A stretch of DNA of 64,000 nucleotides from an uncultured Candidatus Saccharibacteria bacterium (GTDB lineage Bacteria; Patescibacteriota; Minisyncoccia; Phycocordibacterales; SIBU01), in the NCBI GenBank assembly GCA_964355335.1, contig CAYHDB010000002.1, positions 3,192 through 67,191 of the forward strand. The letters are read 5' to 3'. The notes under the pieces were generated by a model. It made no database searches. It saw nothing but the letters and a program-made list of their open reading frames with translations, and had not been told where the DNA came from. A program made the position numbers and the translations under genes. Below, piece by piece: positions 672-63,425 of the stretch; positions within the stretch are counted from its first letter, which is position 1; every line of letters starts with the position of its first letter.

Positions 672-783
672 TATACGAACTTACGAAAGGGTGCAGATAT
701 ACGAACAGATACGAAAACTTTTGTGGTACCACTATGATTTTCGTATTATTTCGTATATTTTCCTAATTCGTATTTTCGTATGT
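672..783. repeat. TACGAA-heptad palindromic element, copy 1 (left arm tacgaac/ttacgaaa/atacgaac/gatacgaaaa, core, right arm ttttcgtat x4)
   Basis: Read directly: tandem (A)TACGAA units, then a ~25 nt core, then tandem TTCGTAT units. Located between the DUF721 start and the dnaN stop. Confidence 0.8.
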
Positions 784-787
784 TTAC

Positions 788-1885
788 CTAGCGGTTCATC
801 GGCATTACCAAATACGTAAAGTTCCTATCCCCTACCCCTCTTATCACCACAGGTCTTCCTTGTCCGGCAAAAGACAGGGATACACTGTCTGTGGTGATAG
901 ATTGCAGACAGTCAGCGATATAGCGGTAATTGAAATTAGCTTCCACACTTTCGCCGGTAAGAGCGGCATCTAGCAATGAGCTGTTTTCTCCAAGGTTGTT
1001 GTTTTTAGTAGTCAGCTCAAACTTTTTTTCTTTAGGGTTGATTGCAATACCAACCTGGTTAAACGTATCAGAAAAAATATTGGCTACTTTGAGCGAACGC
1101 ACCAAATCTTCCTTCAAAACAACCGCTTCGGTCTTGAACTCCTTAGGAATAATTTGTCTGTAGTCTGGGAAAGTGCCGTCCACCACTCTGGAGGTGAGGT
1201 ATGTACCGCCGGAGACAAACGCTATCTGATTTTTGTTAAGTCTCACTTCTACCAAACCCGAAACCCCCTCGAGTATTCGAATAATCTCCGGAACATTTTT
1301 GAACGGAATAAGAACTTTATCAAAATCCAAGGTTTTCATTTTGACTTTCTGCTCGGCTAGACGAAAAGAATCTGTCGCCGCAAACACCGCATAACCATCC
1401 TCTGGATACACATAAACGCTCGCTAGCTCCGCTTTTATACTTGAAACGGAGGAACTGTACCAGACCGCTTTTAAACCTCTCACAAAGTCTTCTGCGTTAA
1501 TCTCAAAGTGCTTTTCCTTGGATATCTCCGGGATAGTTGGAAAATCTTCTACAGGCAAACACTTAATTGAAGTTTTACTCCTTGTGGTGGTTACTGAAAG
1601 CAAATTCTCACTTCCACTCAACTTCACACTCTTCTCTCCTGTAAGGCTTGAAATAAAAGATGAAAGGGTGCCTGCGGGGACAGCAAGAACACCCTCCTCC
1701 TCGACTTTCGCCGGCATAAAACTTTCAAATCCCAAGTCGAGGTTTGTGGCTCGGATAGTGACGCCATTTTTCTTAACATCTAAAAGCACACAAGACAGTA
1801 CAGGTAAGTTTAGATTCCTCCCAGCAATTTTCTCAGCCTGTGAAAGAATCTTTTGTAATTTGTCTTGTACACATTCTGTTTTCAT
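788..1885 (-). CDS. dnaN: DNA polymerase III beta sliding clamp
   Basis: 365 aa, typical DnaN length and N-terminal MK..LxxxLxxV.. pattern. Directly downstream of dnaA. Confidence 0.9.
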   Translation of the reverse strand: MKTECVQDKLQKILSQAEKIAGRNLNLPVLSCVLLDVKKNGVTIRATNLDLGFESFMPAKVEEEGVLAVPAGTLSSFISSLTGEKSVKLSGSENLLSVTTTRSKTSIKCLPVEDFPTIPEISKEKHFEINAEDFVRGLKAVWYSSSVSSIKAELASVYVYPEDGYAVFAATDSFRLAEQKVKMKTLDFDKVLIPFKNVPEIIRILEGVSGLVEVRLNKNQIAFVSGGTYLTSRVVDGTFPDYRQIIPKEFKTEAVVLKEDLVRSLKVANIFSDTFNQVGIAINPKEKKFELTTKNNNLGENSSLLDAALTGESVEANFNYRYIADCLQSITTDSVSLSFAGQGRPVVIRGVGDRNFTYLVMPMNR

Positions 1886-2090
1886 ATACTTTATATAAAT
1901 ATATTACTACTATTAACTATGGGGATAACCTGTTTAGCTTATTTATTTATAAATACCAACGTATTTTAAAGAGAAGAATTGCTCGAAGGTCGGACAGTTT
2001 GTGGGGTAATTGTGTGGATAAGAATTTGGTCTGTATTTATCCCCAGTACGAACAGAGGTTTTCCACACAAAATGCACAGGTTGTTAAAAA
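1886..2090. promoter_or_regulatory. oriC: Probable oriC: AT-rich dnaA-dnaN intergenic region with four DnaA-box-like 9-mers
   Basis: tatggggataacc (~1921-1933, TTATCCCCA rc), tgtggataa (~2015-2023, perfect TTATCCACA rc), ttatcccca (~2036-2044), ttttccaca (~2062-2070). AT-rich spacers. Classic position between dnaA and dnaN. Confidence 0.6.
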
Positions 2091-3434
2091 TCAGAGAGTA
2101 GCTCGTATCTGATCCAGTTCTTGCTCGAGGCTAGGATTTGTCTTCAGCTCCTCTTTTATCTTCTCACAAGAGTGAATCACGGTAGTGTGGTCTCTCCCCC
2201 CAAGTTTCTGCCCTATCAAAGGATAAGAAACACCAAAGTCTTGTCTGAGTAGATACATTACGAGTTGTCTGGGTCGCACCACTTCCTTTCTCCTTGTCTT
2301 CTCGTAAATGTCAGCCTCCTCTATGTTGAAGAAATTGGAGACGGCCTTTGTGATTTCTTTTACAGAGACCGCCTTTTTAGGTTTGGCACTGTTTCTGATA
2401 AGATTTTTCACTTCAGTAATACCAAGCTCCTTCCCTTTTAGTTGAGACTGGCAGATTAAAACATTGAGCATCCCTTCTAGTTCACGAATGTTCCCCTCTA
2501 TTGTAGAAGCCAAGTGCTCCAAAACATCGGGAGCGAACGAAATAAGGCTTTGTTTGGCCTTTGTTTTAAGGATAGCAAGCCTCGATTCCCTATCAGGTGT
2601 AGGAATATCGATAATCATCCCAGCAGAAAAGCGGGATTTCAAACGGTCCTCCAATCCAGGGATAAAATTCGGGTGTTTGTCCGATGAAAAAACAATTTGT
2701 TTGTTTTCCTCGTGGAGACAATTGAAGAGATGGAACAATTCTTCCTGAGTCTTCTCTTTGTTTGAAAGGAATTGAATATCGTCCATTATCAAAATATCGT
2801 ATTTGCGATATTTATCTTTAAAGGCGTTCACTTTGTTTGCCTGAACCGAGTTCACATAATCTATCGCAAACTTTTCGGAGGTAACGTAATAAACTTTTTT
2901 ACCAACACCTTGATTTTTTATATGATTGCCGACGGCCTGTATCAGGTGAGTCTTTCCGTGGCCGGTGTTTCCGTATATAAAAAGAGGATTGTAGGCTTGG
3001 CCGGGTTTTTTCACCACCGCTTGGGCTGCCGCGTGCGCCAATTCGTTGAAAGGACCTACGACGAATGACTCAAAGGTGTATTTGGGGTTTAAATTGTTCT
3101 CCTTGTCTATGTAGAAGTCAGCAAGAGGCAACTCCGCCGTCGGCCCTGTATGGCTTTTTTGTACGTCTCCCTCTTTTCTTTTCCCATCATCTTTTGAGAT
3201 TTGGTACTCTACTGACCTTATGTTTTCTGACAGGTTTCTCAGTGATTTGAGAATAGACTTGTGGTATTTATTGAAAAGCCAATCCTTCGCAAAAGCATTT
3301 GGAACCGATACGAAGACAACCCCATCCTCTTGTTTTAGGATGCGAGTATCTTTAAACCAGGTGTTGAAGTTGGCTCTCGATACTGCGAGTTCTATTTCCA
3401 CCAGCACGTTGCTCCAGAGTTGTTCGTTTTCCAT
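2091..3434 (-). CDS. dnaA: Chromosomal replication initiator DnaA
   Basis: 447 aa. AAA+ Walker A GNTGHGKTHL, C-terminal DnaA-box-binding helix-turn-helix (..LIGQKLGGRDHTTVIHSCEKI..). Confidence 0.95.
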   Translation of the reverse strand: MENEQLWSNVLVEIELAVSRANFNTWFKDTRILKQEDGVVFVSVPNAFAKDWLFNKYHKSILKSLRNLSENIRSVEYQISKDDGKRKEGDVQKSHTGPTAELPLADFYIDKENNLNPKYTFESFVVGPFNELAHAAAQAVVKKPGQAYNPLFIYGNTGHGKTHLIQAVGNHIKNQGVGKKVYYVTSEKFAIDYVNSVQANKVNAFKDKYRKYDILIMDDIQFLSNKEKTQEELFHLFNCLHEENKQIVFSSDKHPNFIPGLEDRLKSRFSAGMIIDIPTPDRESRLAILKTKAKQSLISFAPDVLEHLASTIEGNIRELEGMLNVLICQSQLKGKELGITEVKNLIRNSAKPKKAVSVKEITKAVSNFFNIEEADIYEKTRRKEVVRPRQLVMYLLRQDFGVSYPLIGQKLGGRDHTTVIHSCEKIKEELKTNPSLEQELDQIRATL

Positions 3435-3514
3435 AAATATTTTAAGTGTATCCCATTATATACTCCTTTGATTACCTGTGAGCTTGCGGAGAACGGTTAA
3501 ATATGTTTATAATG

Positions 3515-3523
3515 TGTGGATAG
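3515..3523. promoter_or_regulatory. DnaA-box-like 9-mer (tgtggatag) upstream of dnaA
   Basis: 8/9 match to TTATCCACA (rc), ~80 nt upstream of the dnaA start. Likely autoregulatory or a second origin lobe. Confidence 0.35.
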
Positions 3524-3530
3524 AGTGTGA

Positions 3531-3620
3531 ACAACTGAATTACACATTACCTGTAACTGAATAACTGAATGACAAGGCCAGGTTTTGTCCCAAAAGTTAT
3601 TCTGTCATTCAGTTGTTTGT
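3531..3620. repeat. ACTGAAT-heptad palindromic element (same architecture as the TACGAA elements, different heptad)
   Basis: Left arm aactgaat/aactgaat/aactgaatga, core ggccaggttttgtcccaaaag, right arm tcattcagttg. A second copy is at 30890-31033. Confidence 0.7.
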
Positions 3621-3641
3621 TATAAGTCATAAGTTTCTTAC

Positions 3642-3776: not shown

Positions 3777-3782
3777 TCTCGC

Positions 3783-3887
3783 TATACGAACATACGAAAG
3801 GGTACAGATATACGAACATATACGAAAAACTTCTTGATCCCTGTTCGTATAATTTCGTATATTTCAGTGACCTTAATTTTCGTATTA
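3783..3887. repeat. TACGAA-heptad palindromic element, copy 2, between rpmH and rnpA. The right arm ends 2 nt before the rnpA ATG.
   Basis: atacgaacatacgaaagggtacagatatacgaacatatacgaaaaa | core cttcttgatccctg | ttcgtataatttcgtatatttc..ttttcgtatt. Confidence 0.85.
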
Positions 3888-3889
3888 CT

Positions 3890-4231: not shown

Positions 4232-4288
4232 GCAATTACCGCACATTTTCTTGTTGAACGACACGCAAAAGTAAGCTATAGTGTCGTC

Positions 4289-5002
4289 ATGATTAGTTCA
4301 GCATTTAACGCTGTCATTTATAACCCTCTCTATAACGGGCTTATTTTTTTGATGGATATCGTGCCGTGGGCGGACGCAGGTGTGTCTGTGATAATCTTCA
4401 CTTTTTTGGTTAAATTGCTCTTGTTCCCTCTTTCCCAGAAGGCTGTACGAACACAATTACGAATGAAGGCGCACGAGGCTGATATGGCGGAGATAAAGGA
4501 ACGTCACAAGAACGATAAGGAGGCCCACGCCAGAGCAATGATGGCATTTTATAAGGAGAAAAATATCAATCCTTTTTCAAGTATTTTTTTGGCGTTCATT
4601 CAGATTCCTATTATTTTAGCCCTATATTATATTTTCTATAGCGGTGGTTTGCCTGTCATAGAAACTAAAATTCTGTATTCTTTTGTCGGTACACCGGAAG
4701 TCTCAATGTTGTTTCTTGGGTTGATCGATATAACGAAAGGAAGCTTGATTTTTGCCATACTCGTAGCCGTCAGTCAGTATTTTCAAGTGAAACTCTCCAT
4801 GCCGGAGATGAAGCCTGCTGTCGCAGGGGGCACATTCAAGGACGATTTTGCCAGAACCCTAAATCTCCAGATGAGATATTTTCTTCCTGTACTTGTTGGT
4901 GTTATTGCGTACAATATTGCCGGAGCAGTTTCCCTTTACTGGATTACGAGTAACCTCTTTGCCATCGGCCAGGAGATTTATGTCCGCAAGACATTTATGT
5001 AA
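4289..5002 (+). CDS. yidC: Membrane protein insertase YidC (short Oxa1-type)
   Basis: 237 aa, five predicted TM segments, conserved YidC core. Follows rnpA. Confidence 0.85.
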   Translation: MISSAFNAVIYNPLYNGLIFLMDIVPWADAGVSVIIFTFLVKLLLFPLSQKAVRTQLRMKAHEADMAEIKERHKNDKEAHARAMMAFYKEKNINPFSSIFLAFIQIPIILALYYIFYSGGLPVIETKILYSFVGTPEVSMLFLGLIDITKGSLIFAILVAVSQYFQVKLSMPEMKPAVAGGTFKDDFARTLNLQMRYFLPVLVGVIAYNIAGAVSLYWITSNLFAIGQEIYVRKTFM

Positions 5003-5011
5003 TTAATATTT

Positions 5012-5482
5012 ATGACCCTAGACCACAATAAAACAAAAGATGTGATCCAAGAGATGCTCAAAAGTATGGGTATTGGTTTTGATACTGTAGAGATAATAAG
5101 TAACCCAGATTCACAGCACACCCGTTTTGCGATAAGAACACCTGAGCCTTCCCTGCTTATTGGGACCAAAGGAGAAAATCTTGGCGCTCTTAATTATCTT
5201 ATTAAAAAAATTGTTACTAAGGCCCTCGCACCCGATACGGAAGTTAAGTTCTTCATCGATGTGAACGACTACCATGAGAGAGCCTTGGAGTCCGTTAAGG
5301 CGAAAGCAAAGGTTATGAGCGAAAGGGCCCGTTCCTTTAAGGTGGATATCGAGATGGAACCTATGACATCTTACGAGAGAATGCTTGTGCATTCGTGCCT
5401 CGAAGGGGTCTCTGACGTCAAAACAGAATCTGTCGGCGAGGGGCCTCTTAGACGTGTTGTTATTAAGTACCTTGCCTCATAA
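5012..5482 (+). CDS. jag: Jag/KhpB-type RNA-binding protein (KH + R3H)
   Basis: 156 aa. C-terminal R3H-like ..YERMLVHSCLEG.. Position after yidC. Confidence 0.75.
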   Translation: MTLDHNKTKDVIQEMLKSMGIGFDTVEIISNPDSQHTRFAIRTPEPSLLIGTKGENLGALNYLIKKIVTKALAPDTEVKFFIDVNDYHERALESVKAKAKVMSERARSFKVDIEMEPMTSYERMLVHSCLEGVSDVKTESVGEGPLRRVVIKYLAS

Positions 5483-5587
5483 ATACGAAAATACGAAAGG
5501 TACAGATATACGAACATATACGAAAAAGCTTCTTGATTCCTGTTCGTATTATTTCGTATATTTCAGCGACCCCTTTTTCGTATTAAG
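5483..5587. repeat. TACGAA-heptad palindromic element, copy 3. It overlaps the stop codons of the two convergent genes jag and the 5583..6830 ORF.
   Basis: aaatacgaaaatacgaaaggtacagatatacgaacatatacgaaaaa | gcttcttgattcctg | ttcgtattatttcgtatatttc..ttttcgtatta. Core nearly identical to copy 2. Confidence 0.85.
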
Positions 5588-7991: not shown

Positions 7992-7993
7992 AT

Positions 7994-9019: not shown

Positions 9020-9137
9020 AGATATATTTTAACACAAATAGTATCGATACCAATATACTAATTGTACTAATGATACGAATGGGACCCCGGCTTTGATTAG
9101 TATAATTAGTATTCATTTGTATATTAGCATCGATACC
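9020..9137. repeat. TACTAAT/ATTAGTA-heptad palindromic element (third heptad family, same architecture)
   Basis: agtatcgatacc..atactaattgtactaatgatacgaat | gggaccccggctttg | attagtataattagtattcatttgtatattagcatcgatacc. Outer ends tatcgatacc / catcgatacc are also inverted. Confidence 0.7.
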
Positions 9138-10113: not shown

Positions 10114-10461
10114 TTATACCTTAATGAAATCGCGTATTTCTCGCAGTACGCTATCAAGATTATACCTCACATCACTATCGACAAACCTTAGAAACTTAAT
10201 CCCCAGTGATTCTAATGTTCGCTGTCGGTCAGTATCATCATCTATCTTGCTGTCATGACTTATCCCATCTACTTCAATAGCCAAGTTTAATGTCGAGCAA
10301 TAAAAATCAACGACATAATTCCCTATCGGACGTTGACGAAGGAATTGATAGCCAAGTTTCTTTGCTCGCAACTCTTTCCACAGCAAAACTTCTGCCAGAT
10401 TTTCTGCTTTGCGTAGGTTTCGAGCAATCCGCGCCAGTTTTTGATTGTAATGCAACTTCAT
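10114..10461 (-). CDS. DUF559 domain protein (Vsr/very-short-patch-repair-like endonuclease fold), selfish-element-like
   Basis: C-terminal 115 aa of the listed ORF: MKLHYNQKLARIARNLRKAENLAEVLLWKELR..VDFYC..LAIEVDGISH.. (DUF559 signature). AAAGGAGGAAC Shine-Dalgarno 6 nt upstream inside a CCTCCTTTATTAAAGG hairpin. Confidence 0.7.
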   Translation of the reverse strand: MKLHYNQKLARIARNLRKAENLAEVLLWKELRAKKLGYQFLRQRPIGNYVVDFYCSTLNLAIEVDGISHDSKIDDDTDRQRTLESLGIKFLRFVDSDVRYNLDSVLREIRDFIKV

Positions 10462-10589: not shown

Positions 10590-12437
10590 TTAAGACGGGG
10601 TTTGTGCAGTAGGTTGAGTCTCTTTTTCTCCCTGTTCTTCCAATTCCTGTTTGGCTTGTTTTATCGCCAGAAGTTGTGATGGGTCTGATGTGATAATCTG
10701 GTCTTCGGTATATGAAGCGATGACTTTTATGGCAACGTGCTTCATTCCAACGAAGAATATTCCTTCTCCCACATCGCACTCAAGAAGTAGATATTTTTCT
10801 TCGTCGGTGAGATTGAAAGTTTTTTGGACACGTTCAATAGACGATGGGGATTGTTTCAGAAGCATCTGTATCGAGGAATTTGTAATAATCGGTAAACCGT
10901 ATGGAGATTTAAGAAAGTCGTCCACGTCCTGAGTGATTGTCGCGAGGCCGAGATAGTATTTGCGACCTCTCTTTGCTAGCCCAAGCAGGAAAGAAGCCGT
11001 ATCCTCGGATTTCATCATCCACCATGCTTCATCGATGACCAGTAGGCGCTTGCGAAGATTCTTCCTGATAGCGTTCCAGATATAGTGAGTGACGATGTAC
11101 ATTGCCACAGGTTTCAACTCGTCCTCCATATCTCGGAGTGAGAACACGATAAACTTTGCTTCAATATCGATGTTTGAAGGTTTATTTATAAATCCCGCCC
11201 ACGTACCTCTGGTGTATTTGGAAAGCCTTTGAACAAGTGAGTCCCCTCCCTCCATCCCCGCAAGCACCAATTCAAAGTCTGAAAGTAGTGGTGGTTCGAC
11301 ATTTCTAAAGTCCGAATCCGGAGTAATGTCTTTAAGTGCGTATGTTTCGCTGATGGCGCGGTCAATAATCGCATCCTCTTCTGGCGTTAAGCCACCAAGC
11401 ATAATTCTGAACAAACCCACAAGATTTATGATGTTTGAGCGCAGAACATCCGAAGAAGCCTCGTCTTCTCTGGGTATAGGAAGGTCGAAAGGATTTATGT
11501 GGTGAGTCGAGTTTAGCGAGATTGTGAAATATTTTCCGCCGGTCGCTTCTGCCATATATTCATATTCCCTTTCCGGGTCGATGACGATAACTTCGGTGTC
11601 AAACATCAGCGTTCGTAGGATTTCAAGTTTTGTATTGTAGGATTTTCCTGAGCCGGATTTCGCAAAAGTTATTGAGTTGTAGTTTTCCAAAGAAAATCTG
11701 TCGAAGAGGACCAAGGAAGAATTGTGGCGGTTTATACCGTAGAGTATTCCCTTGTCTGATGTAAGGTCGAATGAAGTAAACGGGAACAAAGAAGAAAGGG
11801 GTGAAGAATTGAGCTTTGAATGAACCATAAGCTCATCTTGAGCAATAGGCATTACACTTCTGAAGCCTTGTTCTTGCTGGAAAAGGGCGGGTTTTAGATA
11901 AATCAGCTTTGATTCTAGAATGGATTTGATTTCCGATTCTATCTTGTCCAGCTCCTCGTCACTCTTGCCGTATATTGAGATATATAGACCGACATCAAAC
12001 AGTTTCTCCTGCGCCTGCATCAGATTGTCTCGCAGTCTTTCAAGGTCTTGATAAGCTGTATCAAGCATAGGGTCTCGGACCATTCCCTTTTTCGCACGCT
12101 CGTTTATTTGGCTTTGGACCTCTGCCACTTTTTTCTGAAATTGACGTAAAACAATAGCCGTATCGATAGGATGAATGAATATTGAAATATCAAATACCTT
12201 GTCTAGGTTGATAATTGGTGAAAACCACCCTTCCGCAAGGAAGCGAGGGTAAGAGATGACAAAGAATGTTCTTACGATGGAGTCACCAAGGTTAAGAGCC
12301 CGAGGAGTCACCTTGAGTGCTGAAGGGGCGATGATATCTTTCAACTCCAAAACCCCGGATTCGTAAATCTCTTGGGGTAGGATGCTCGCAATGTCAGGAG
12401 CTTTGTCTTTTCTTTTTAAAAAATCAAATATTCCCAT
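10590..12437 (-). CDS. VirB4/TrbE/PrgJ-family conjugative-transfer ATPase, C-terminal two-thirds (ATPase domain)
   Basis: Walker A FAKSGSGKSY. Walker B LLVIDEAWWMM (DEAW is typical of VirB4). True start taken as MGIFDFLKRK; the residues upstream in the listed ORF are translated from the repeat element. Confidence 0.7.
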   Translation of the reverse strand: MGIFDFLKRKDKAPDIASILPQEIYESGVLELKDIIAPSALKVTPRALNLGDSIVRTFFVISYPRFLAEGWFSPIINLDKVFDISIFIHPIDTAIVLRQFQKKVAEVQSQINERAKKGMVRDPMLDTAYQDLERLRDNLMQAQEKLFDVGLYISIYGKSDEELDKIESEIKSILESKLIYLKPALFQQEQGFRSVMPIAQDELMVHSKLNSSPLSSLFPFTSFDLTSDKGILYGINRHNSSLVLFDRFSLENYNSITFAKSGSGKSYNTKLEILRTLMFDTEVIVIDPEREYEYMAEATGGKYFTISLNSTHHINPFDLPIPREDEASSDVLRSNIINLVGLFRIMLGGLTPEEDAIIDRAISETYALKDITPDSDFRNVEPPLLSDFELVLAGMEGGDSLVQRLSKYTRGTWAGFINKPSNIDIEAKFIVFSLRDMEDELKPVAMYIVTHYIWNAIRKNLRKRLLVIDEAWWMMKSEDTASFLLGLAKRGRKYYLGLATITQDVDDFLKSPYGLPIITNSSIQMLLKQSPSSIERVQKTFNLTDEEKYLLLECDVGEGIFFVGMKHVAIKVIASYTEDQIITSDPSQLLAIKQAKQELEEQGEKETQPTAQTPS

Positions 12438-12440
12438 AGT

Positions 12441-12554
12441 TATTAAAATATACGAACATACGAATTGGTGCGGATATACGAAATAATACGAAAACCGCAG
12501 TGTATTTCGCAAATTTTTCGTATATGTTCGTGTTTTTGTACCATTATTTTCGTA
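12441..12554. repeat. TACGAA-heptad palindromic element, copy 4, lying between the two VirB4 ORFs
   Basis: atatacgaacatacgaattggtgcggatatacgaaataatacgaaaa | ccgcagtgtatttcgcaaa | tttttcgtatatgttcgtgtttttgtaccattattttcgtattag. Confidence 0.85.
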
Positions 12555-13202
12555 TTAGTTGATTTGGACAGGTTTATCCATCTCCCCTGGATTGAATATC
12601 TTATAAAGTAACTCAACCACTTCTTCCGTACCAAGCTGGGCAGCGCGGATGCCACACCGTACCAATCCCTGCTCTACCACAGACAGACGTTGCAGAAGTT
12701 GGCTTCGGTTTTCCTCGAAAACATCCTGCTTCGTTTCCCTTTTCTGTTCCGCCTCTTCTCTGGTCAAAAACCTTCCTGCCCTATCCACCAGCCCCCCTTT
12801 GCCTTGAAGTGGCGCGGGCGCGTATGGGACGACAACAAAAAATGTTTTTGTCATTATGTTTGCGCTCTCGGTAAAACTTTTTATGAAGCCGATGTACTCC
12901 CTTGTCTGGACTTTCATCAAATCGGTCGATTGTTCTTTGTAACGTTCTTCCAGTAGAGCTATATATGGTCGGATATCGAGTTTTCTCGATTCTATAAAAA
13001 GTTGAACTGAAAAATCCAGTGAGTTTAGAAAGTTTTGGAATTGAGAAATGATCGCGTTTTGGTTTTCCTGAGATTTCAAAGCAAAGTTCAGCGATGATGT
13101 CATAAGAAGCGCACGGAAAGAGCCGTCCTTGAGGACGATGATACCATCGCGTACCTCTTTGATGGGTACAAACTCTTGGGTGGCCCTGGGTGTTGTTGCC
13201 AT
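12555..13202 (-). CDS. VirB4-family N-terminal domain, encoded as a separate ORF
   Basis: ..IKEVRDGIIVLKDGSFRALLMTSSLNFALKSQENQNAIISQFQNFLNSLDFSVQLFIESRKLD.. matches the TrbE/VirB4 N-terminus (..KDGSF....f.g.d..s....E.......lNn.l..L..gw.i.ve.qR). The combined 215+~613 aa is roughly VirB4 length (~800 aa). Confidence 0.6.
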   Translation of the reverse strand: MATTPRATQEFVPIKEVRDGIIVLKDGSFRALLMTSSLNFALKSQENQNAIISQFQNFLNSLDFSVQLFIESRKLDIRPYIALLEERYKEQSTDLMKVQTREYIGFIKSFTESANIMTKTFFVVVPYAPAPLQGKGGLVDRAGRFLTREEAEQKRETKQDVFEENRSQLLQRLSVVEQGLVRCGIRAAQLGTEEVVELLYKIFNPGEMDKPVQIN

Positions 13203-13300
13203 ACTAATTATACGAACATACGAATTAACGAAAATACGAAATTATACGAAAACCATAGTGGTGCCACAAAAGTTTTCGTATTTGTTCGTGTTTTGCTTCA
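13203..13300. repeat. TACGAA-heptad palindromic element, copy 5
   Basis: attatacgaacatacgaattaacgaaaatacgaaattatacgaaaa | ccatagtggtgccacaaaag | ttttcgtatttgttcgtgtttt. Confidence 0.85.
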
Positions 13301-13660
13301 TTATATCTTTTTTACATTATCAATGCGAACAATACGAATTGGTTTGATAATTTTTTCTCTAAAATTAACCAGATACCCTAAACGCATCTGGGTTTCCTGT
13401 AAGTAATGTTGGACTTGGCGGTAGTCTTCAGGAGTCAGTGCACGTTTCGCTTTCAATTCAAGGATAATTTTCTCTTCAATCAAAAAATCAAGTATATTTC
13501 CACTATTAGATATTGCCAATTCTCTTTTGTATGCAATTTTTCTATTTTTTAGCTTTTCTTCAATTATGTCCGCGTATTGCTTCTCTCTTCCGTACAATCC
13601 CAGTTCTTTATGAGCCTCAAGGAAAATTCCCACTAAATCGTAAGACAAGTTAGGGTATAT
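13301..13660 (-). CDS. GxxExxY-family protein (PD-(D/E)XK-like), small cassette-like gene inside the T4SS-like operon
   Basis: ..LVGIFLEAHKELGLYGREKQYADIIEEKL..GNILDFLIEEKIILELKAKRALTPEDYRQVQHYLQETQMRLGYLVNF.. follows the GxxExxY family pattern (lG.G..E..Y...L...L.....D....iilElK.......h..Q...YL.....gLLiNF). Start uncertain: an ATG inside the repeat, or an internal TTG/GTG. Confidence 0.6.
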   Translation of the reverse strand: MYPNLSYDLVGIFLEAHKELGLYGREKQYADIIEEKLKNRKIAYKRELAISNSGNILDFLIEEKIILELKAKRALTPEDYRQVQHYLQETQMRLGYLVNFREKIIKPIRIVRIDNVKKI

Positions 13661-13669
13661 TACTTTCGA

Positions 13670-13722
13670 GGACACACTTTTCGTATTTGTTCGTATATCC
13701 GCATCCATTCGTATTTTCGTAT
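13670..13722. repeat. TACGAA-heptad element, short copy 6 (ttttcgtatttgttcgtatatccgcatccattcgtattttcgtatc)
   Basis: TTCGTAT units flanking a short core. Lies between the GxxExxY gene and the prgI-like gene. Confidence 0.6.
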
Positions 13723-14166
13723 CTACCTCTTCCCTCCCATCGTCTCGCTCGCTCCAGGACTAATGTTTTCATTGATATCAAGTGACCACGTCAGATCTTT
13801 CAGCTTGCTATCGGAAAGCCTCGGCACGTAGAGAAGTGGGGCGACAATATCTTCGGCTTTTTTCGGAACGATTTTTTTGTCCTGTTTTTTCCAGATGTAG
13901 AGTTTGCTTGAAATCATAAACTTAAAGGCTGATTCAAGCACTCCTATGAATGGCCTGTTGTTCACCTTGTAGAATGCCAACGAAAGACCGAAGGCAACCA
14001 CGGGAAGGATGAGTAGTATGGCCAGGATAAAGGAGATCGGCCCCACATAGGTATAGATGATGAAGGATAGACCTCCAGCACCGGCGACATAGACAAATTG
14101 CTTGATCGTGAGTGATCCGAAAATCTTGTCTTCTACCTCGATAAATTGTGGGACTTGAAATTGCAT
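13723..14166 (-). CDS. PrgI-family protein (VirB3-like small membrane component of Gram-positive-type T4SS)
   Basis: MQFQVPQFIEVEDKIFGSLTIKQFVYVAGAGGLSFIIY.. matches the PrgI N-terminal consensus (..vP.di..edkifg.Lt.rQl.yl..g) followed by a TM hairpin. Lies in the same operon as the VirB4 ATPase, on its upstream side. Confidence 0.65.
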   Translation of the reverse strand: MQFQVPQFIEVEDKIFGSLTIKQFVYVAGAGGLSFIIYTYVGPISFILAILLILPVVAFGLSLAFYKVNNRPFIGVLESAFKFMISSKLYIWKKQDKKIVPKKAEDIVAPLLYVPRLSDSKLKDLTWSLDINENISPGASETMGGKR

Positions 14167-14290
14167 AAATATACGAAAATACGAATTTTACGAAACTACG
14201 AAATAATACGAACACCGCGCTGGTGACACAAAAGTTTTCGTATATGTTCGTATGTCTGTTTCATTTCGTATGTTCGTATGGTTAGTGTAG
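14167..14290. repeat. TACGAA-heptad palindromic element, copy 7
   Basis: aaatatacgaaaatacgaattttacgaaactacgaaataatacgaaca | ccgcgctggtgacacaaaag | ttttcgtatatgttcgtatgtctgtttcatttcgtatgttcgtatgg. Confidence 0.85.
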
Positions 14291-14297
14291 TGCGTGG

Positions 14298-16060
14298 CTA
14301 CATAGGCTCTCGGTATGGATCACTATTCTGTCCTACCCCAGGCTTGTTCGAAGTCACAACACTGGAAAGTTTCTGGTCTAGAATGTTTTTAGCTGATACT
14401 CCTTGCACAGGTATGGCGGTGCTGATTGGTTTTTGAATAGCTGGTTGAGCGACAGGAGGCGTTGTGATTTTGGGAGACATAATTGGAGCGGAAGGCAAAG
14501 GCTTTTCCGACATCACAGGAGGTGGTACTGAGCGGAGAGAATCAAGTTTTTGTCCAAGAGCTCCTCTTTGGATGACAGGTTCAGGTGGTTTAGGCAATGT
14601 TCCAGGTTGCCACGGAGTGTCCTGTGCTTGTACTCCTGGCTTTACGGCATCTGAGGAGGAAGGTTCTGAGGATGAAGAGGTTGTCGTCTGAAATTCTCCC
14701 TTGTTAAAGGTCGAAGTCCTCGAAGAAACGTCATCGAGAGTACCGCTTTCGGAAGCGGGGAGGGATTTAAATCCTCCGTCCTCGCCGACTTGGACACCTC
14801 CTTTAGTAAAGGTCGGAGTCCTCGGAGATACGTCGGCGAAGGAATCTGAAACAGGGATTCCCGTTTTTGGTTTCATTGGAACAGGAAGAGACGGACCTTG
14901 TGCCGGAGTGGTCTGGGCACTAGCTGGGGTAGCCTTGTTGTCTCGAAACCAGAGTGGTTTTGGATTTTCTATGTCACGGAGAATTGTAGCTCGGTCCGGC
15001 ACTTCCCCGCTGTCAGTACCGCCAAGGTTTGGGGCTGGTTTTGTAGAAGCCACTTGCGCAACCGGTTTTATAGGTATCGGCGATGAAGGTGTGGGAGGCA
15101 CGGTCTCTTCATGAATTTGCTTCAAGGCCTCTCTGATTTTTAGAAAAACTTCTGTGTTTATCTCTTGTGCAACCAACTTTACTTTCTCTTCAGAAAGACC
15201 GAGACGTCTGGAAAGATGAGGCAGGAATTGTCCCGGATGTGTAAAGCCAAGTATCACCATTCCTGTCTCCGCACCAAGCTCCCCTATCTTGTCCACATGA
15301 AGAGCGTATTTCCTGCCGATGTCCACCACCTTTTTGGCGGAGTCCACAGAACGTAGGGCCTCTTTTAGTTTTAGTGGCAGTTTTTCATACTGTTGGACCA
15401 TTTCTTTTTCAGAAACTCTACCATCAAGCATACGCAGAAGAGACTCAATCGGTTTCTCTGACATTTGTGTGTGGCTGGTCTCCATTATCGGTGGTTTCAT
15501 TCCCCCAAATCTTGAGTCAGTCTCTCCTGTCGGCAGGTTGCTTGGAGGTGGAGCGTATGTAGATGAAAATGTTGCACCTCGTACTACGGGTGGAGGAACA
15601 GTCGTTTGACCCCACGACGAAGATGGTGGCGGAGGAGCCATTCTTTTCGGAGGCAGTCTTGATGGCAAAGGCTGTGACAAGACAGAATCAACAACTTCAA
15701 GCCCTTCCACTTTCGGTGGAGCGGTCTGTACGGAAAGTTCTATCGGGATTTTGATTCCAAGTGCCGGAAGAAGTTTGGAAAAAATCTTCTCACTGATTAA
15801 GGAAACAATCTGAGGTATTTTTTCTCTGTTGTCTTCGTCAATCTTTTCGGTTAACCCCGCTTCAAAATCCTTCGGTTGACGTTCCTTCGTAATTATCTGC
15901 CGTACCAACTCGCACACCTCACCGATCTCCCGCATGGTCAATCCGACAACGTCCGCAATTCCCTCTATGGTGAATACCAGATTGTCATTCTCAACAACGG
16001 ATATTGCAGATGGAGGCAGTTTGCTGGTAGCAACAGTTAACTTATCGAATTGTTCGGTGT
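14298..16060 (-). CDS. Pro-rich hypothetical protein with internal peptide repeats (SPRTPTFTKG / SRTSTFNKG)
   Basis: Likely start MSYTEQFDKLTV. Structured N-terminal domain followed by a Pro/Ser/Thr-rich region. DNA 14700-14850 shares a repeat with the DUF559 flank (10470-10590). Confidence 0.5.
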
Positions 16061-24409: not shown

Positions 24410-25172
24410 GAGTTGCGAGAGTTTTCCACTCCTCGAGGGACAAGTTCTCTGCACGTGTATTTTTTTCAATACCGGATTTTCCCATTATTTTTTCGATTTC
24501 CGGAAGTATTTCCTTCAGGTTTGCGGAAAGTTTTTTTCGTTTGTGAGCGAAACCTGTTTTAACAATTGTGAAAAAAACTTCCTCGGTAAACCCATCAAAG
24601 AAGGACTTCGAAATATTTTCGATAGCAAGAATTGCCGAGTCGACTTTTGGAGGTGGCGCAAAACTGCCGGCTTTCACTATGCCGATTATTTTCGGAGAGC
24701 CGTATGCTTTTACAGAAATGGAGAGAATACTTTCTTTCTTGTCGCGGGCAATTATTCTTTCAGCTACCTCCTTCTGAACAAGGATTACCATTCTTGATGG
24801 CTGTTGCTCCGCTTCTAAAAACTTTCTGATAAAAGCACCCGTAATATAATACGGTATGTTCGCTATTACTTTATACTTTGAAAATTGAAAATTGGAAATT
24901 GAAAATTCCAAAATATCATTTTCAATTAAAGCTAATTGTCCGGAGGCAATCTCTCTTGAAAATCTGTTATGCAGATGCGGTATAAGTCGCCGGTCCTTTT
25001 CAATCGCAATTACTTTTGCACCAGCTTTTAATAGAGCCTCCGTAAGCACTCCTTCTCCAGGCCCTGCCTCAAGTACCGTTTCTCCAGGATGGATATCTCC
25101 CGCTTTTACTATGTCAGATATGGCTTTTCCGGAACGGAGAAAGTTTTGCCCGAGTGATCTTTTTTGTATCAT
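24402..25172 (-). CDS. rsmA: 16S rRNA (adenine1518/1519-N6)-dimethyltransferase
   Basis: SLGQNFL motif. SAM-binding VLEAGPGEGVLT. 256 aa. Confidence 0.9.
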   Translation of the reverse strand: MIQKRSLGQNFLRSGKAISDIVKAGDIHPGETVLEAGPGEGVLTEALLKAGAKVIAIEKDRRLIPHLHNRFSREIASGQLALIENDILEFSISNFQFSKYKVIANIPYYITGAFIRKFLEAEQQPSRMVILVQKEVAERIIARDKKESILSISVKAYGSPKIIGIVKAGSFAPPPKVDSAILAIENISKSFFDGFTEEVFFTIVKTGFAHKRKKLSANLKEILPEIEKIMGKSGIEKNTRAENLSLEEWKTLATLR

Positions 25173-25174
25173 AC

Positions 25175-25290
25175 GAAAATTTTATACGAATATACGAAAG
25201 TATACGAAATTAAGAAAATAGTCAGATGGCAGTTTTCGTATTTGTTCGTATATTCGCACAAATTCGTATTTTCGTATACTAATCAAGGTA
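25175..25290. repeat. TACGAA-heptad palindromic element, copy 8, between pcrA and rsmA. Abuts the rsmA start codon.
   Basis: catacgaaaattttatacgaatatacgaaagtatacgaaatt | aagaaaatagtcagatggcag | ttttcgtatttgttcgtatattcgcacaaattcgtattttcgtatac. Confidence 0.85.
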
Positions 25291-31404: not shown

Positions 31405-31530
31405 TCTATCAATAAATATACGAAAATACGAATGGGTACGGATATACGAACATATACGAAAACCCTACTGCCCCATTTCTTTTTTCGTATTATTTCGTAT
31501 ATTCGTGGAGCAATTTTCGTATTATTGAAC
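31405..31530. repeat. TACGAA-heptad palindromic element, copy 9
   Basis: aaatatacgaaaatacgaatgggtacggatatacgaacatatacgaaaa | ccctactgccccatttc | ttttttcgtattatttcgtatattcgtggagcaattttcgtattattg. Confidence 0.85.
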
Positions 31531-49254: not shown

Positions 49255-49327
49255 GCGCTCGGTTCCTCTCAACCTTTTCAAAGGGGGAGATTGAGAGGGG
49301 GTGAGTAGAACATTTTATAACCACCTC

Positions 49328-50146: not shown

Positions 50147-50620
50147 GTTTTGTTTTTCCTCCCCTTCTTGCGAAGGAGGGGAAAGAGGGGTGGTTACGAC
50201 CCATCCTCAATCCTCCCCTTCGAAAGGGGAGGAGAATTAAGGTGAAGTATACTCCCAATCCATTTTGTGTCAATCTTTTTCGACAAAAATATGCTCATAT
50301 TCTTAAATATATTGATAAATATGGCGTTATTAAACATATTATTGACGATATTTATTGACAATAGGGTCTAGAAATGTTACGATTATGTCAGAAAGATACG
50401 AATCGTCTCGACAGGCTCGAGATAAACAAGTTCTTTGAAACCTGCTTGCTGAAGTCATAGGTTTAGTCATCTTCGACAGATGAATAGTGCGCGGGTTCGA
50501 AACCGCCCACTTATCATCTGTCGAGTGAGGCATGTGTCATCCTGAATCGGCTTGAAAACCCGAGCAGAATTGAAAAGTGTAAATCCGCATTTTTCTTCAC
50601 GAAACGGATGAACCAAATTT

Positions 50621-57230: not shown

Positions 57231-57521
57231 AAAATATAAATTAAGAATCGGTACGAATATACAAATGGATACCGTACGGATTGATTATGATAAAAATTAA
57301 TTATTTCGACCAAATAAAATTAATAACAACTTACAAACTGACTATAACCATTATATAATAAGCCGTTTTTTCCGCAACACGAGGTTTTTCACGATTTCTT
57401 TAGAATATTTTATAATGGTTTTGTCAAAAATCTATAAAACCAACCCCGTTTCGCGAAGCGAAACGGGGTTGGTAGATTTTGTTTTTATTCTTGAATCGTA
57501 ATTCCTGATTCTTAATTCTTC

Positions 57522-59231: not shown

Positions 59232-59400
59232 TTGTAAAGCCTTATACGAAAATACGAAAGGGGAGAATATACGAACAAATACGAAAACAGCCCATGGCCG
59301 GAACGGCCACGGGCTGTAGGACCGCAAGGTCCCATTTTCGTAAACTTTCGTATATCTTCTCGATTCGTATTTTCGTATTATTTCAGTATTTCGTCTATCA
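59232..59400. repeat. TACGAA-heptad palindromic element, copy 11, with a ~55-nt GC-rich double-hairpin insertion in its core. The right arm overlaps the clpP stop.
   Basis: ccttatacgaaaatacgaaaggggagaatatacgaacaaatacgaaaa | cagcccatggccggaacggccacgggctg taggaccgcaaggtccca | ttttcgtaaactttcgtatatcttctcgattcgtattttcgtattatttcagtatttcg. Confidence 0.8.
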
Positions 59401-59950: not shown

Positions 59951-60003
59951 ATGTAATACGAATTACGAATAGGTACGAATATACGAATAATACGGAGAGT
60001 ATA
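59951..60003. repeat. Half-element: four tandem TACGAAT heptads ending at the clpP start codon, with no opposing arm
   Basis: atgtaatacgaattacgaataggtacgaatatacgaataatacgg. A perfect palindrome TAGACTTG-A-CAAGTCTA lies at 60015-60031. Confidence 0.7.
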
Positions 60004-60183
60004 ACAAGAGTAGATAGACTTGACAAGTCTAGGTTTTACTGTAATGTATTTTCATCGCCATTGTCTAAAGCTTGGCGGGTCGTTAGTAGGTTCTTCTCGA
60101 ACCTACCTCGTGATGCTTCCGAACTTTATCGGTTGTGACGGGCCAATATCTGGTAGCGGGAAATCTTCTGAAAGGAGATAAAA

Positions 60184-60609
60184 ATGAGAAATGAGTACAT
60201 TACAAACTTTGTGGAACAAATGGTCGGTCAAGGACTGATGAAGGGGATTTCTGCCCAAGCATACACCTTTCAATCGGCATGGGACCTGCGTAAACTTCTG
60301 GAGCCTGTCATCAGACCAAAACTGGAGCCAATGACTGCCGAAACTCTTGGCAGGATTATTGAGTACAGTGATGTTGTTCACCGGCAGAGTAGGTGGGAAG
60401 CGTATGGACTCATTGGCAAGGAGCATTTGATCAACAGAGAAAACCTTACCGCTCAAACGGAAGTGGGGGTTTACGCCACATACGGTGGCAAGCAACTTCT
60501 TGTGCATCTTGCCATGTTGACTGTTCTCGCGGTGGTGTTTGATGTCATTAACCAAAGAGACTATCAAGAAATTCAGGGGTTTGATAGGGAGGATCCGGCT
60601 TTTTGGTAA
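60184..60609 (+). CDS. Hypothetical protein (141 aa)
   Basis: No recognisable motif. Terminator gcccgtcacttcggtgtcgggctttt follows. Confidence 0.4.
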   Translation: MRNEYITNFVEQMVGQGLMKGISAQAYTFQSAWDLRKLLEPVIRPKLEPMTAETLGRIIEYSDVVHRQSRWEAYGLIGKEHLINRENLTAQTEVGVYATYGGKQLLVHLAMLTVLAVVFDVINQRDYQEIQGFDREDPAFW

Positions 60610-60721
60610 TTTACTTTGTCACAGCCCGTCACTTCGGTGTCGGGCTTTTCTTTTTGTGGTTTTCCACTACAATTGATAAATCATTCTTACCTCTCCTCCT
60701 TTCGAAGGAGGAGAAAGAGAG

Positions 60722-61797: not shown

Positions 61798-61913
61798 AGC
61801 CTGTCTGGTGGATGTATTTAACTTGAACCGCTACTCTTTACCCAAGTAAAGAGTAGCGGTTTAGTGAATGTAAAAAAACCGACAGGAAGTTGCCGGTCGG
61901 TTCGAAGGGTGAT

Positions 61914-62201
61914 TCAGTCGCCTAGCAAAGCTTTGCCGGCGGGGGTCCAAGGGTCAACGTGACCCACTCCATAAACATGGACCATCCTGGAAGCGCTTTC
62001 GTGGTGCCGCTGAAACACGTCCATCATGGCCTTCACGTCCCCGCCGAAAGCATCTGCGCAAGGTGGGCACATTACTCCTGCCTGGATGAAGGGGTGACCG
62101 CAGGTTTTGCATGATCTCTTGCGCGCGGATAGGTCCAGCTTCTTATCGCCGAAGGGGCCGTTGATATAAAGAGCGTAATGTCTGACAGGTTCATCTGGCA
62201 T
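61914..62201 (-). CDS. Small Cys/His-rich hypothetical protein, GC-rich (about 57%), probably horizontally acquired
   Basis: Composition read directly. CKTCGHPF..CPPCADAF Cys pairs. Flanked by two hairpin terminators (61825-61905). Confidence 0.4.
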   Translation of the reverse strand: MPDEPVRHYALYINGPFGDKKLDLSARKRSCKTCGHPFIQAGVMCPPCADAFGGDVKAMMDVFQRHHESASRMVHVYGVGHVDPWTPAGKALLGD

Positions 62202-62287
62202 AATTTTTCTCCAGTTATAGGTTTGTTGTCTGCGACTGATATTATCTTTTTTAATTCAAAAAAGCCACTAAGTTTTAGTGGCTTTTA

Positions 62288-62352
62288 ATGATGAAGGTTG
62301 AAAAGATTTTAACCACCCTCAATCCCTCCTTCGAAAGGAGGGAAGGGGAAAA
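62288..62352 (+). pseudogene. Remnant of a DUF559 element 3' end (encodes ..ILTTLNPSFERREGEK over the hairpin ccctccttcgaaaggaggg)
   Basis: aaccaccctcaatccctccttcgaaaggagggaaggggaaaagatt matches 61055-61100 at 44/46 positions. No endonuclease body. Confidence 0.6.
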
Positions 62353-62354
62353 GA

Positions 62355-63383
62355 TTATTTTTGAGATTCCAGAAAGTCGAATACTTTTTCGTTGGTCATC
62401 ATCATTGCGACATAGGCGCGAGTACGAGCTGGGTCTGCTTCCTTGTAGTGTTCGAGCATGTGTTTCACTTCTTCTTCAATCGCCTCGGCGCTGGCGGAAA
62501 TTTTTTCTTGTTTTGCTATGGCGTTCCACACCAGCTGTAGTTTCCCTCGTTTCTCCGCGTCCGGTCTCCACTCCTTGCGCATATCTTCTTCCGTCTTTTT
62601 TATGTGTTTCAGATAGTCTTCGATTTTCATTCCCATTCTTGCGATGTCGTCATTGAAACGTGCGAACATCTTTGCCATTTCACTTTCAATTAAAGCCTTC
62701 GGCACAACGGTATCTGTTTTCTTTAGAATTGCTTCGGCAAGTGTCAGTCTTTTTTTATCTTTGGCTTTTTGTTCTTTTTCTTGGGTAAGATTTTCTTTTA
62801 CTTTATTTTTGAAATCAGTGACATCTTTGAAGTCACCAAGCTTTTTTACAAATGTGTCATCGAGTGTTGGCAATTCTTTCACTTCACCTCCTTTCTCCGC
62901 GCTTTGAGCAAAACCTTTTCTAACATTTTCTATGAAGTCAGCAACTTCTTTTTCTGAGACGACTACCTCCTCGGGTTTTTTTGAGTTTTCCGATATAGCG
63001 ATTTTTTTGTAGTCAGGAAGTTTCACTTCAGGCAGTACACTCACAGTGATAGTAAAAGTCAGAGGGTTTCCCGGAGCGAGCTTGGTGATTGTGACGTGAG
63101 GGTCTCCGACAAATGAAACTTTTTTCTCTTTGATAATTTCCGGTAGGATTTCCTCAACGGCTTCATAGCCCGCTTCCTCTAGGATCGCAAGCTCTCCGAC
63201 TTTTTGGATTAGAATATTTTCCGGTACATGGCCAGGTCTAAAGCCCGGAATGTTCGCATGTTCGGACATTTCCTTTATGGCTTTTGACCTATGTTTTGCA
63301 AGTGTTTCATAGGAAATCTCCGCCTCGATTTGAAGCTCGGACTCCGGTAAATTTTTCTCTCCCAATAGTGTGTATGGTTTCAT
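62355..63383 (-). CDS. tig: Trigger factor, short form (342 aa, apparently lacking the PPIase domain)
   Basis: N-terminal ribosome-binding signature ..IPGFRPGHVPENILIQKVG... The tig-clpP neighbourhood is conserved. Confidence 0.7.
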   Translation of the reverse strand: MKPYTLLGEKNLPESELQIEAEISYETLAKHRSKAIKEMSEHANIPGFRPGHVPENILIQKVGELAILEEAGYEAVEEILPEIIKEKKVSFVGDPHVTITKLAPGNPLTFTITVSVLPEVKLPDYKKIAISENSKKPEEVVVSEKEVADFIENVRKGFAQSAEKGGEVKELPTLDDTFVKKLGDFKDVTDFKNKVKENLTQEKEQKAKDKKRLTLAEAILKKTDTVVPKALIESEMAKMFARFNDDIARMGMKIEDYLKHIKKTEEDMRKEWRPDAEKRGKLQLVWNAIAKQEKISASAEAIEEEVKHMLEHYKEADPARTRAYVAMMMTNEKVFDFLESQK

Positions 63384-63384
63384 A

Positions 63385-63425
63385 ATGAATACAAATTACG
63401 AATCTGTACGAATATACGAATAAAA
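63385..63425. repeat. Half-element: three tandem TACGAAT heptads ending at the tig start codon
   Basis: atgaatacaaattacgaatctgtacgaatatacgaataaaaa. Confidence 0.65.

Follow-up and report, generated by a model that had tools for sequence, protein, structure and literature searches.

The window analysed here, a 64 kb stretch of contig CAYHDB010000002.1, covers the origin-proximal region of an uncultured genome from the Candidate Phyla Radiation (CPR, or Patescibacteria). It carries dnaN, dnaA, the rnpA-yidC-jag genes, a secretion cluster with VirB4, TraC-like and PrgI genes, rsmA, uvrD, a dksA-like gene, the gene for RNase Y, clpP and tig. Between these genes lie arrays of a short unit, TACGAA, most of which are arranged as palindromes. 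In all likelihood these palindromes are part of a family of small CPR repeats that has not been described before. The reading we prefer, and consider probable though far from certain, is that they are the gene-less members of a repeat family in which the gene-bearing member is a unit of around 0.5 kb containing a GxxExxY nuclease gene. Such a family would resemble either the REPINs (doublets of repetitive extragenic palindromes, REPs) with their RAYTs (REP-associated tyrosine transposases), or the miniature inverted-repeat transposable elements (MITEs).

TACGAA arrays at gene junctions

Counting both strands, the window contains 109 matches to TACGAA, a total not reached in any of 100 dinucleotide-preserving shuffles (33.7 +/- 6.9 expected); the family proposed in the initial annotation of this DNA is real, and clustered where it had been placed. 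The arrays comprise nine full palindromes, one palindrome composed of variant units and three single arms, every one of which is situated at a gene junction, and make up about 1.7% of the window. Their common plan is TACGAA-N2-TACGAA-N10-12-TACGAA-N4-TACGAA, then a core of 17-51 nt, then the mirror image. As the N12 spacer contains a degenerate fifth unit (TACgGA or TACaGA), each arm can be described as ATACGAA repeated in tandem about five times, once every 8-10 nt. A profile hidden Markov model of the arm detects 17 arms in the window at E<0.01, and reclassifying arms with a more tolerant definition of the unit brought no improvement. Genes were called by a simple longest open reading frame (ORF) rule, which misses small genes. 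The features are as follows, the coordinates of the palindrome or single arm itself being given in brackets.

672-782, no strand: gene-less palindrome (674-780) just 3' of the dnaN stop codon, with an A-arm (674-715), a core and a T-arm (740-780)
3783-3886, no strand: gene-less palindrome (3785-3884), the right arm ending 5 nt before the rnpA ATG
5483-5584, no strand: gene-less palindrome (5484-5582), filling exactly the gap from the jag stop codon (5482) to the convergent stop of a 415-aa gene (5583)
9040-9132, no strand: variant-unit palindrome of a second sub-family, TGCTAAT/TACAAAT/TACTAAT then ATTCGTA/ATTAGTA/ATTGGTA
12449-12556, no strand: gene-less palindrome (12451-12554) between the TraC-like 215-aa gene (stop 12555) and virB4, the ATG of which is 13 nt past the arm
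13210-13722, minus strand: gene-bearing unit of ~513 bp (palindrome 13211-13300, single arm 13680-13721), with terminal inverted repeats ATACGAACATACGAAT (13210-13225) and ATTCGTATTTTCGTAT (13707-13722) around the GxxExxY gene
13301-13708, minus strand: GxxExxY / PDDEXK_3 nuclease gene, 135 aa as the longest ORF
14170-14280, no strand: gene-less palindrome (14172-14278) between a 599-aa gene and prgI
25170-25278, no strand: gene-less palindrome (25172-25276) between uvrD/pcrA (stop 25279) and rsmA, the ATG of which overlaps the last unit
31417-31523, no strand: gene-less palindrome (31419-31521) between a 304-aa gene (stop 31522) and the dksA-like gene
59243-59379, no strand: gene-less palindrome (59245-59377) directly after the clpP stop codon, with a terminator hairpin in its core
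59955-59989, minus strand: single arm (59957-59987), the four TTCGTA units of which read in the sense of clpP and stop 6 nt short of its ATG
59998-60026, minus strand: sigma-70-type promoter directly preceding the clpP arm, TTGTCA-17-TATACT with TG (10 of 12 matches)
63393-63421, minus strand: single arm (63397-63420), three units, 13 nt before the tig ATG, lying 3' of a terminator (63522-63546) and a weak promoter-like site

This list departs from that of the initial annotation in three respects. The copy reported at 57245-57290 has just one exact hexamer and escapes the profile, hence is at best a relic; the arrays at 13203-13300 and 13670-13722 exist as described, but are the two ends of one gene-enclosing unit rather than separate copies; and the variant-unit palindrome at 9040-9132 had been overlooked. 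The near identity reported for the cores of two copies, those starting at 3785 and 5484, was confirmed (89%, or 92% over the whole elements), as was the tight positioning of the arms relative to coding sequences. From the last TTCGTA unit to the next ATG the distance is -1 nt for rsmA, 5 nt for rnpA and prgI, 6 nt for clpP, 8 nt for the TraC-like 215-aa gene, 13 nt for virB4 and tig, and 22 nt for the dksA-like gene. Stop codons likewise abut or overlap the first unit of the opposite arm: jag ends with TAA-a-TACGAA, and at 5583, 12555, 31522 and 59378 the TAA is followed by TACGAA at once.

The GxxExxY nuclease gene and its flanking arrays

The ORF at 13301-13708 encodes a GxxExxY protein (PF13366 / TIGR04256 / PDDEXK_3) with a Cas4/RecB-like PD-(D/E)XK fold, the catalytic residues of which (D74...E84-x-K86) are invariant among the homologues. 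Amongst its weak fold matches is the catalytic domain of I-Bth0305I; PADLOC reports weak similarity to Cas4b only, the PHROGs matches are restricted to families of unknown function, and neither a plasmid protein search nor a PDB sequence search returned a match. The GxxExxY family is annotated as being of unknown function and prone to horizontal transfer (PMC3424549). In the window, the gene sits between the single arm at 13680-13721 and the palindrome at 13211-13300, and an internal degenerate arm and core (13251-13300) are also held within the unit; the 16 nt at either extremity are complementary at 94%, thereby defining the 513-bp unit at 13210-13722. The 5' end of the ORF reads through the arm, and its true start is uncertain. 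Reading of ORFs into arrays was observed both here (13680-13708) and in L103, one of the fetched loci or contigs of relatives that are denoted by L-numbers, where (2982-3040) the prgI ORF does so for ~13 codons; GxxExxY N-termini such as MDADIRTNTK and DTNIRMNTN are translated heptads.

The link between gene and arrays was tested on 54 metagenome loci fetched by protein homology rather than by the repeat, of which 45 were analysed. Profile-detected arms adjoin the GxxExxY gene in 22 of the 45, always with an A-arm upstream and a T-arm downstream, and about four arms occur elsewhere in these loci; when the flanks are read directly, inverted tandem-unit arrays are seen in nearly all GxxExxY loci. 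A score for inverted flanks that does not depend on the sequence of the unit has a median of 41.5, compared to 16.7 for shuffled sequence and 16.0 for displaced windows (Wilcoxon p=1.7e-7; Mann-Whitney p=7.6e-7), with 30 of 36 loci scoring at least 26. The same arm-gene-arm layout is present in all of three further long contigs fetched via homologues, as units of 454-512 bp. The gene is found between inverted repeat copies in the window (13210-13722), L103, L159, L160 and L161, with terminal inverted repeats of 16 nt in the window (94% identity), 15 nt in L159 (100%), 17 nt in L103 (100%) and 48 nt in L160 (90%). The repeat family is physically linked to the nuclease gene.

The flanking unit differs by lineage, being TACGAAT, TGCGAAT, TACTAAT/TACCAAT, TACAAAT or, in L137, ACAGATT. 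The type of unit co-varies with the protein, identity being 0.48 within a class and 0.43 between classes (permutation p=0.003), and the most divergent GxxExxY protein is accompanied by an unrelated heptad. In L136, five tandem arms lie upstream of the GxxExxY gene (2527-2950), and 41 hexamers are present in the locus.

Distribution and turnover among CPR genomes

A species-representative genome collection was scanned for the exact arm pattern. Among the matches listed, it occurs in more than 100 stretches from roughly 35 or more metagenome-assembled genomes (MAGs) ranging in GC content from 32% to 56%, almost all of which are labelled Parcubacteria/Paceibacterota (Taylor-, Zambryski-, Vogel- and Nomura-bacteria, and others). 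In most such MAGs the arm usually stands alone, as a stretch of ~58 nt whose flanks are conserved, in the order TAAGATAAACA, five T[A/G]CGAAT units and TAA; the mostly palindromic sub-type is that of the window and of the MAG JBBTUO01. L044 contains a run of eleven TTCGTA units (4950-5114), the last nine of which are spaced by AA. Searches of the literature on the motif, on CPR promoters and leaderless genes, on CPR repeats and on GxxExxY/PF13366 found no description of the element.

JBBTUO01 has one copy between a penicillin-binding protein gene and murF (L055) and another between a type IV secretion gene and prgI (L101); over 109 nt, the 35-nt core included, the two share 94% identity. Orthologous copies of the window and L101 share at most 78% identity. 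Unlinked paralogous copies, at 92-94%, are hence more alike than orthologous ones, which, judged from the sequences, is the behaviour of a repeat family. Arrays are shared at five orthologous start junctions, confined to the window at seven, confined to the relative at six and absent from both at 18; strict orthologous conservation was rejected, the odds ratio being only about 2. Turnover was also examined junction by junction in three syntenic relatives, in two of which, L101 and L103, VirB4 is 89-91% identical to that of the window, and proved to be rapid. Of the junctions between the prgI and TraC-like genes, those of the window, L103 and L159 are filled and that of L101 is empty; the junction between the TraC-like gene and virB4 has three different palindromes in the window, L101 and L103, and is an empty 8 nt in L159; and in other relatives clpP, tig and dnaN are without arrays. 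Comparison with relatives was the check that the initial annotation had itself proposed for a dedicated expression role, and the absence of the element from orthologous junctions with gene order unchanged favours a repeat element over such a signal.

The junction between the 599-aa gene and prgI is occupied by a palindrome in the window and L101, in L103 by another GxxExxY gene, the arrays of which are variant, and by a bAvd-type gene with TAGGG arrays in L159. As different cargo genes at one junction carry different arrays, the sequences favour arrays that travel with the gene, rather than a gene that homes into arrays. The L159 gene (9140-9560; GCA_040384205.1, JAWVGZ010000168.1) encodes a 118-aa 23S_rRNA_IVP/bAvd-type protein, stands in the place of the palindrome at 14172-14278, and is located between inverted short-unit arrays, with TAGGG repeats upstream and CCCTAAACCC downstream. 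Tandem arrays of the TAGG type are also intergenic in L007, L069 and L075. In CPR genomes it may be general for small genes to lie between inverted arrays of short units.

Arrays are unevenly distributed over the types of junction. Of gaps of at least 30 nt, they occupy 23.6% between co-directional genes, 7.1% between divergent genes and 6.8% between convergent genes (chi-square p=8.5e-5), the corresponding values for all gaps being 16.8%, 5.9% and 5.0%; an alternative definition of the arm reproduces this bias. Their orientation relative to the direction of the gene is near even (31 against 33). Arrays in the A-orientation have their outer flank 3-11 nt after a stop codon and an ATG 17-20 nt past their inner end. 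Those in the T-orientation end between -1 and 13 nt before the ATG, with peaks in the distance at -1 and 10-12 nt, and have 50-200 nt upstream, often with a terminator. The strong sigma-70-type promoter of clpP ends about 10 nt upstream of the clpP array, which would therefore be a 5' leader. By reading of the sequence, a similar promoter-then-array arrangement precedes tig in the window and topA in L031 and L057, in agreement with the initial suggestion that the elements are transcribed together with the genes whose junctions they fill. Just upstream of T-arrays there is an enrichment of predicted start sites, with 14 of 52 within 20 nt.

The most regular arrangement was observed in L038 (1-7540), from the MAG CAZLRP01, which contains the S10/spc ribosomal protein cluster. 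A module of ~75 nt is present at every junction other than the tight overlaps, namely S19/L22, S3/L16, L16/L29, L29/S17, S17/L14, L24/L5 and L6/L18. All seven are in the A orientation, a conserved A-rich stretch runs up to the ATG beside each of these arrays, and the tightly coupled gene pairs are array-free. Some copies are decaying through TACGAA to TACAAA changes, that is, by CpG loss.

The scarcity of Shine-Dalgarno (SD) sites remarked upon in the initial annotation extends to all of the fetched CPR loci, SD-like motifs preceding only 8% of genes when these are taken together with the window; none of the fetched loci has a 16S rRNA gene in which to look for an alternative anti-SD pairing. 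Several array-less genes have a TAnnnT hexamer 6-7 nt before the ATG (TGgTATACT-gatttgt-ATG at 23348, TACACT-aggaac-ATG at 55987, and TATAAT-aaatca-ATG before the TraC-like gene of L101); as far as the sequences go, this placement, along with the rarity of SD sites, suggests that leaderless mRNAs are common in the lineage of the window. With Rfam 15, gathering scores were reached in the window by four tRNAs only, and there was no match up to E=1 within 12300-14400. DnaA-box-like sequences (TGTGGATAA / TTATCCCCA) are located on both sides of dnaA, at ~1990-2090 and ~3490-3560, and appear consistent with a replication origin inside the window; the TACGAA palindrome at 3785-3884 borders this region.

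A second, unrelated repeat family consists of short GC-rich intergenic hairpins of the form CCCTCC-TTCG/AAA-GGAGGG, found in the window at ~300-400, 49255-49327, 50147-50338, 60568-60721 and 62202-62354, and in L008 at 483-609. In a Vogelbacteria MAG, a hairpin of this type lies within the core of a TACGAA palindrome. CCTCC/GGAGG hairpins also flank a small DUF559 gene (Vsr-like PD-(D/E)XK) on the minus strand of the window (10114-10461), which has a canonical GGAGG SD site, unusual for this genome, and which looks like a recent insertion because it is missing from the same junction in L101, L103 and L159.

Relationship to known systems and rival explanations

A close parallel is with the REPIN-RAYT systems (PMC3116915; PMC3337134; PMC3686654), in which the enzyme gene is likewise flanked by the repeat that it serves (Bertels & Rainey 2011, PMC3116915). 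Both are extragenic repeats, mostly inverted doublets capable of forming hairpins, in tens to hundreds of copies; in both a small enzyme gene lies between inverted repeat copies and enzyme lineages are paired with repeat sequences, singlets occur beside doublets, and the repeats persist across related lineages. The window has nine to ten doublets and three singlets in 64 kb, and elsewhere singlets predominate. However, the enzyme here is a PD-(D/E)XK protein of the GxxExxY family and not a Y1/HUH transposase (PF01797), and an arm stands where a REPIN would have a single REP palindrome of 20-25 nt. Whereas a REP unit is a palindrome of 20-40 nt with a GTAG or CGTC tag (PMC3733652), the arm consists of about five 7-nt tandem units, is not itself palindromic and lacks such a tag. 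The hosts also differ, being CPR bacteria, as does the placement of the copies, which favour co-directional junctions and abut start and stop codons. A CPR genome that carries a GxxExxY unit, GCA_023229825.1, was observed to have a 231-aa Y1_Tnp gene (PF01797, IS200/RAYT-type) at 733-1428 of L160, not adjacent to arrays.

With MITEs and their parent insertion sequences, such as the Correia elements and eukaryotic foldback elements, the arms of which are sub-repeated, the family shares terminal inverted repeats around a short non-coding core, a longer gene-carrying version with the same ends, patchiness among relatives, and sub-families with shared cores. The arms are ~73-77% complementary in the gene-less copies, and complementarity rises to 90-100% at the termini of the gene-bearing units. 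It differs in that no target-site duplication was detected in the one, much diverged, filled/empty pair, in that the arms are internally repeated heptads, and in that the parent unit is of ~0.5 kb and encodes only a 125-145 aa PD-(D/E)XK nuclease, with no DDE, serine or tyrosine transposase. Free-standing PD-(D/E)XK homing endonuclease genes such as that of I-Ssp6803I also place a nuclease gene amid an otherwise symmetrical target and spread by cleavage and repair without transposase chemistry, with which the layout and the conserved catalytic residues of the GxxExxY genes would be compatible; however, the putative targets here are multi-copy intergenic repeats that are mostly empty, instead of one conserved gene. 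The REP elements and bacterial interspersed mosaic elements (BIMEs) of E. coli are similar as co-transcribed intergenic palindromes, within or at the ends of operons, with the potential to form stable RNA hairpins, but differ in that pairing here is without compensatory upkeep, arms often occur singly and placement follows start and stop codons in the absence of SD sites. TIGR arrays, known from CPR bacteria as part of TIGR-Tas systems, consist of tandem guide units with box C/D motifs beside a tas (Nop-domain) gene. This identity was rejected, as the modules here are single and scattered, their units recurring every 8-10 nt, and the flanking ORFs yielded no Nop-domain gene.

That the nuclease recognises the arrays, and how copies spread, we infer from these observations. 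The tandem ATACGAA units are most likely multiple recognition sites for the nuclease, which would probably bind as an oligomer and promote both the copying of arm pairs into new sites and their loss, through cleavage and recombination or repair. Copies would survive mainly in transcribed spacers between co-directional genes, as there is no promoter, SD site or terminator there for an insertion to destroy, and would thereby become 5' leaders, intercistronic RNA and, in the case of the palindromes, long hairpins. Survival of this kind in compact genomes could account both for the co-directional bias and for the close fit of the arrays to start and stop codons. Such copies may secondarily have been co-opted for expression. 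It is quite possible, though we put it forward tentatively, that GxxExxY proteins in general serve a kind of bacterial mobile DNA that has so far gone unrecognised, composed of ~0.5-kb units with inverted heptad arrays as ends and of gene-less derivatives that have in part been co-opted as leaders and spacers. Of the five roles initially put forward for the elements, of which those in expression were favoured, that of a MITE-like mobile element is the best supported, with secondary effects on expression plausible from sequence.

Several observations weigh against this reading. PD-(D/E)XK nucleases act by hydrolysing DNA; transposition by such an enzyme alone is not known, and movement would have to depend on host repair. 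Neither a target-site duplication nor a clean insertion scar was found in the one filled/empty pair: at the junction between the TraC-like gene and virB4, comparison with L159 places the insertion directly after the TAA stop codon with no clear duplication, the flanks being too diverged for the comparison to be decisive. Two samples of the same organism, 99.7-100% identical and without indels, do not differ by the insertion or excision of any copy. The co-variation of unit and protein is significant but weak, the nearest neighbour sharing the class in 10 of 23 cases. That the sequence itself is under selection is suggested by the conservation of the arm across MAGs spanning 32-56% GC, and by the site between the 599-aa gene and prgI, where the units have been kept between the window and L101 and the spacers and core have diverged. 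The L038 arrays, seven of seven in one orientation with a conserved flank up to the ATG, point the same way. Convergent junctions are as depleted as divergent ones, and neutral repeats usually accumulate at convergent junctions. The comparison covers loci and contigs.

Cross-lineage conservation, unit conservation at an orthologous site, the uniformity of the ribosomal protein operon and the convergent depletion make co-option a live possibility and the main rival. In its full form, which we consider unlikely, the arrays would be cis-acting expression modules of the host, bound by a conserved host factor and possibly replacing the SD site, with the GxxExxY gene a homing-endonuclease-like parasite in the core of a palindrome. 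The bias towards co-directional junctions, the constrained distance to the downstream ATG in both orientations, the promoter-like sites just upstream of T-arrays and the near absence of SD sites are all as such modules would have it, and the gene-in-core layout fits homing into a palindromic target equally well. Yet the element is used in both orientations, which as RNA are differing sequences; close relatives express the same genes without it; whole-element identity between unlinked copies extends to the core outside the units, arguing for copying rather than convergent selection; and arrays differ with the cargo gene at one junction, as if the two travelled together. Homing would also be expected to leave most palindromes filled, whereas the window has about ten empty and one filled. 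Still less credible is that the arrays serve as promoters or, for some global transcription factor, as arrays of operators, a reading to which we give very little weight. The last unit and its flank often make up TTCG/TAT(A/G)TT followed by 6 nt and the ATG, which is the geometry of a leaderless promoter (9 of 49 at a distance of 10 nt), and TAT(A/G)TT with 6 nt is the commonest arrangement; the TraC-like gene of L101 has a bare TATAAT-6-ATG where in the window an arm is fused to the same hexamer; and the operators bound by MetJ or omega-type repressors are likewise built of short boxes in tandem. However, the spacing to the ATG ranges, even among orthologues, from -1 to 22 nt, divergent regions, which need two promoters, are depleted, the best promoter matches are recognisable upstream of the arrays, and half of the arrays, including all of those in the ribosomal protein operon, point away from the downstream gene. 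Both a generic and a leaderless promoter were rejected on these grounds.

It is also improbable, in our view, that the palindromes are RNA hairpins under selection, whether as terminators, attenuators, RNase III sites or, like the E. coli REP/BIME elements, mRNA stabilisers. For six palindromes, folding was predicted at -24 to -36 kcal/mol, with z-scores between -2.2 and -8.4; the outer flank is rich in T, and one copy is situated exactly between two convergent stops. Right after clpP, the core of the palindrome at 59245-59377 contains a strong terminator hairpin (59287-59317; 14 bp, 10 of them GC pairs), the T-tract of which is the start of the next arm, as well as a second hairpin on the other strand. 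But arms are 73% complementary within an element and 77% between elements, hence there is no compensatory maintenance of pairing; the two single arms that were folded are unstructured (z about 0), and the single arm is the commonest form in other lineages. Nor would a hairpin account for the tandem repetition within an arm. A generic terminator was rejected given the depletion at convergent junctions and the presence of ordinary hairpin-plus-T terminators elsewhere. An intrinsic terminator has a GC-rich stem with a T-run right behind it; the stems of the arms are AT-rich and imperfect, only the core hairpin of 59245-59377 being of the terminator form, and within 12300-14400 there were no terminator calls in arms. 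The long hairpins envisaged in the initial annotation would form in the palindromes, but their pairing is not maintained; the proposal that they mask the ribosome-binding region is not supported, since so few genes have an SD site to hide.

We therefore return to the TACGAA palindromes as probable gene-less, non-autonomous relatives of the GxxExxY unit. CPR genomes are tiny and streamlined, yet the arrays account for about 1.7% of the window, and in some relatives an array is found at nearly every non-overlapping junction of a ribosomal protein operon. Explaining them bears on how transcription and translation are organised without SD sites. As several called ORFs read through arrays, the start and stop annotations beside these elements in CPR MAGs are unreliable; the arrays are likely to cause both start-codon mis-annotation and assembly breaks in such MAGs, and they constitute a lineage marker. 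The link with GxxExxY is the first proposed, and testable, role for a large and widespread family annotated as unknown since 2012. If true, this would be the first REPIN-like system run by a nuclease of the restriction-endonuclease fold, and would provide a function for an orphan family. If confirmed, the REPIN-RAYT idea, of one resident enzyme gene sustaining a population of short repeats, would extend to a new protein fold and a new branch of the bacteria.

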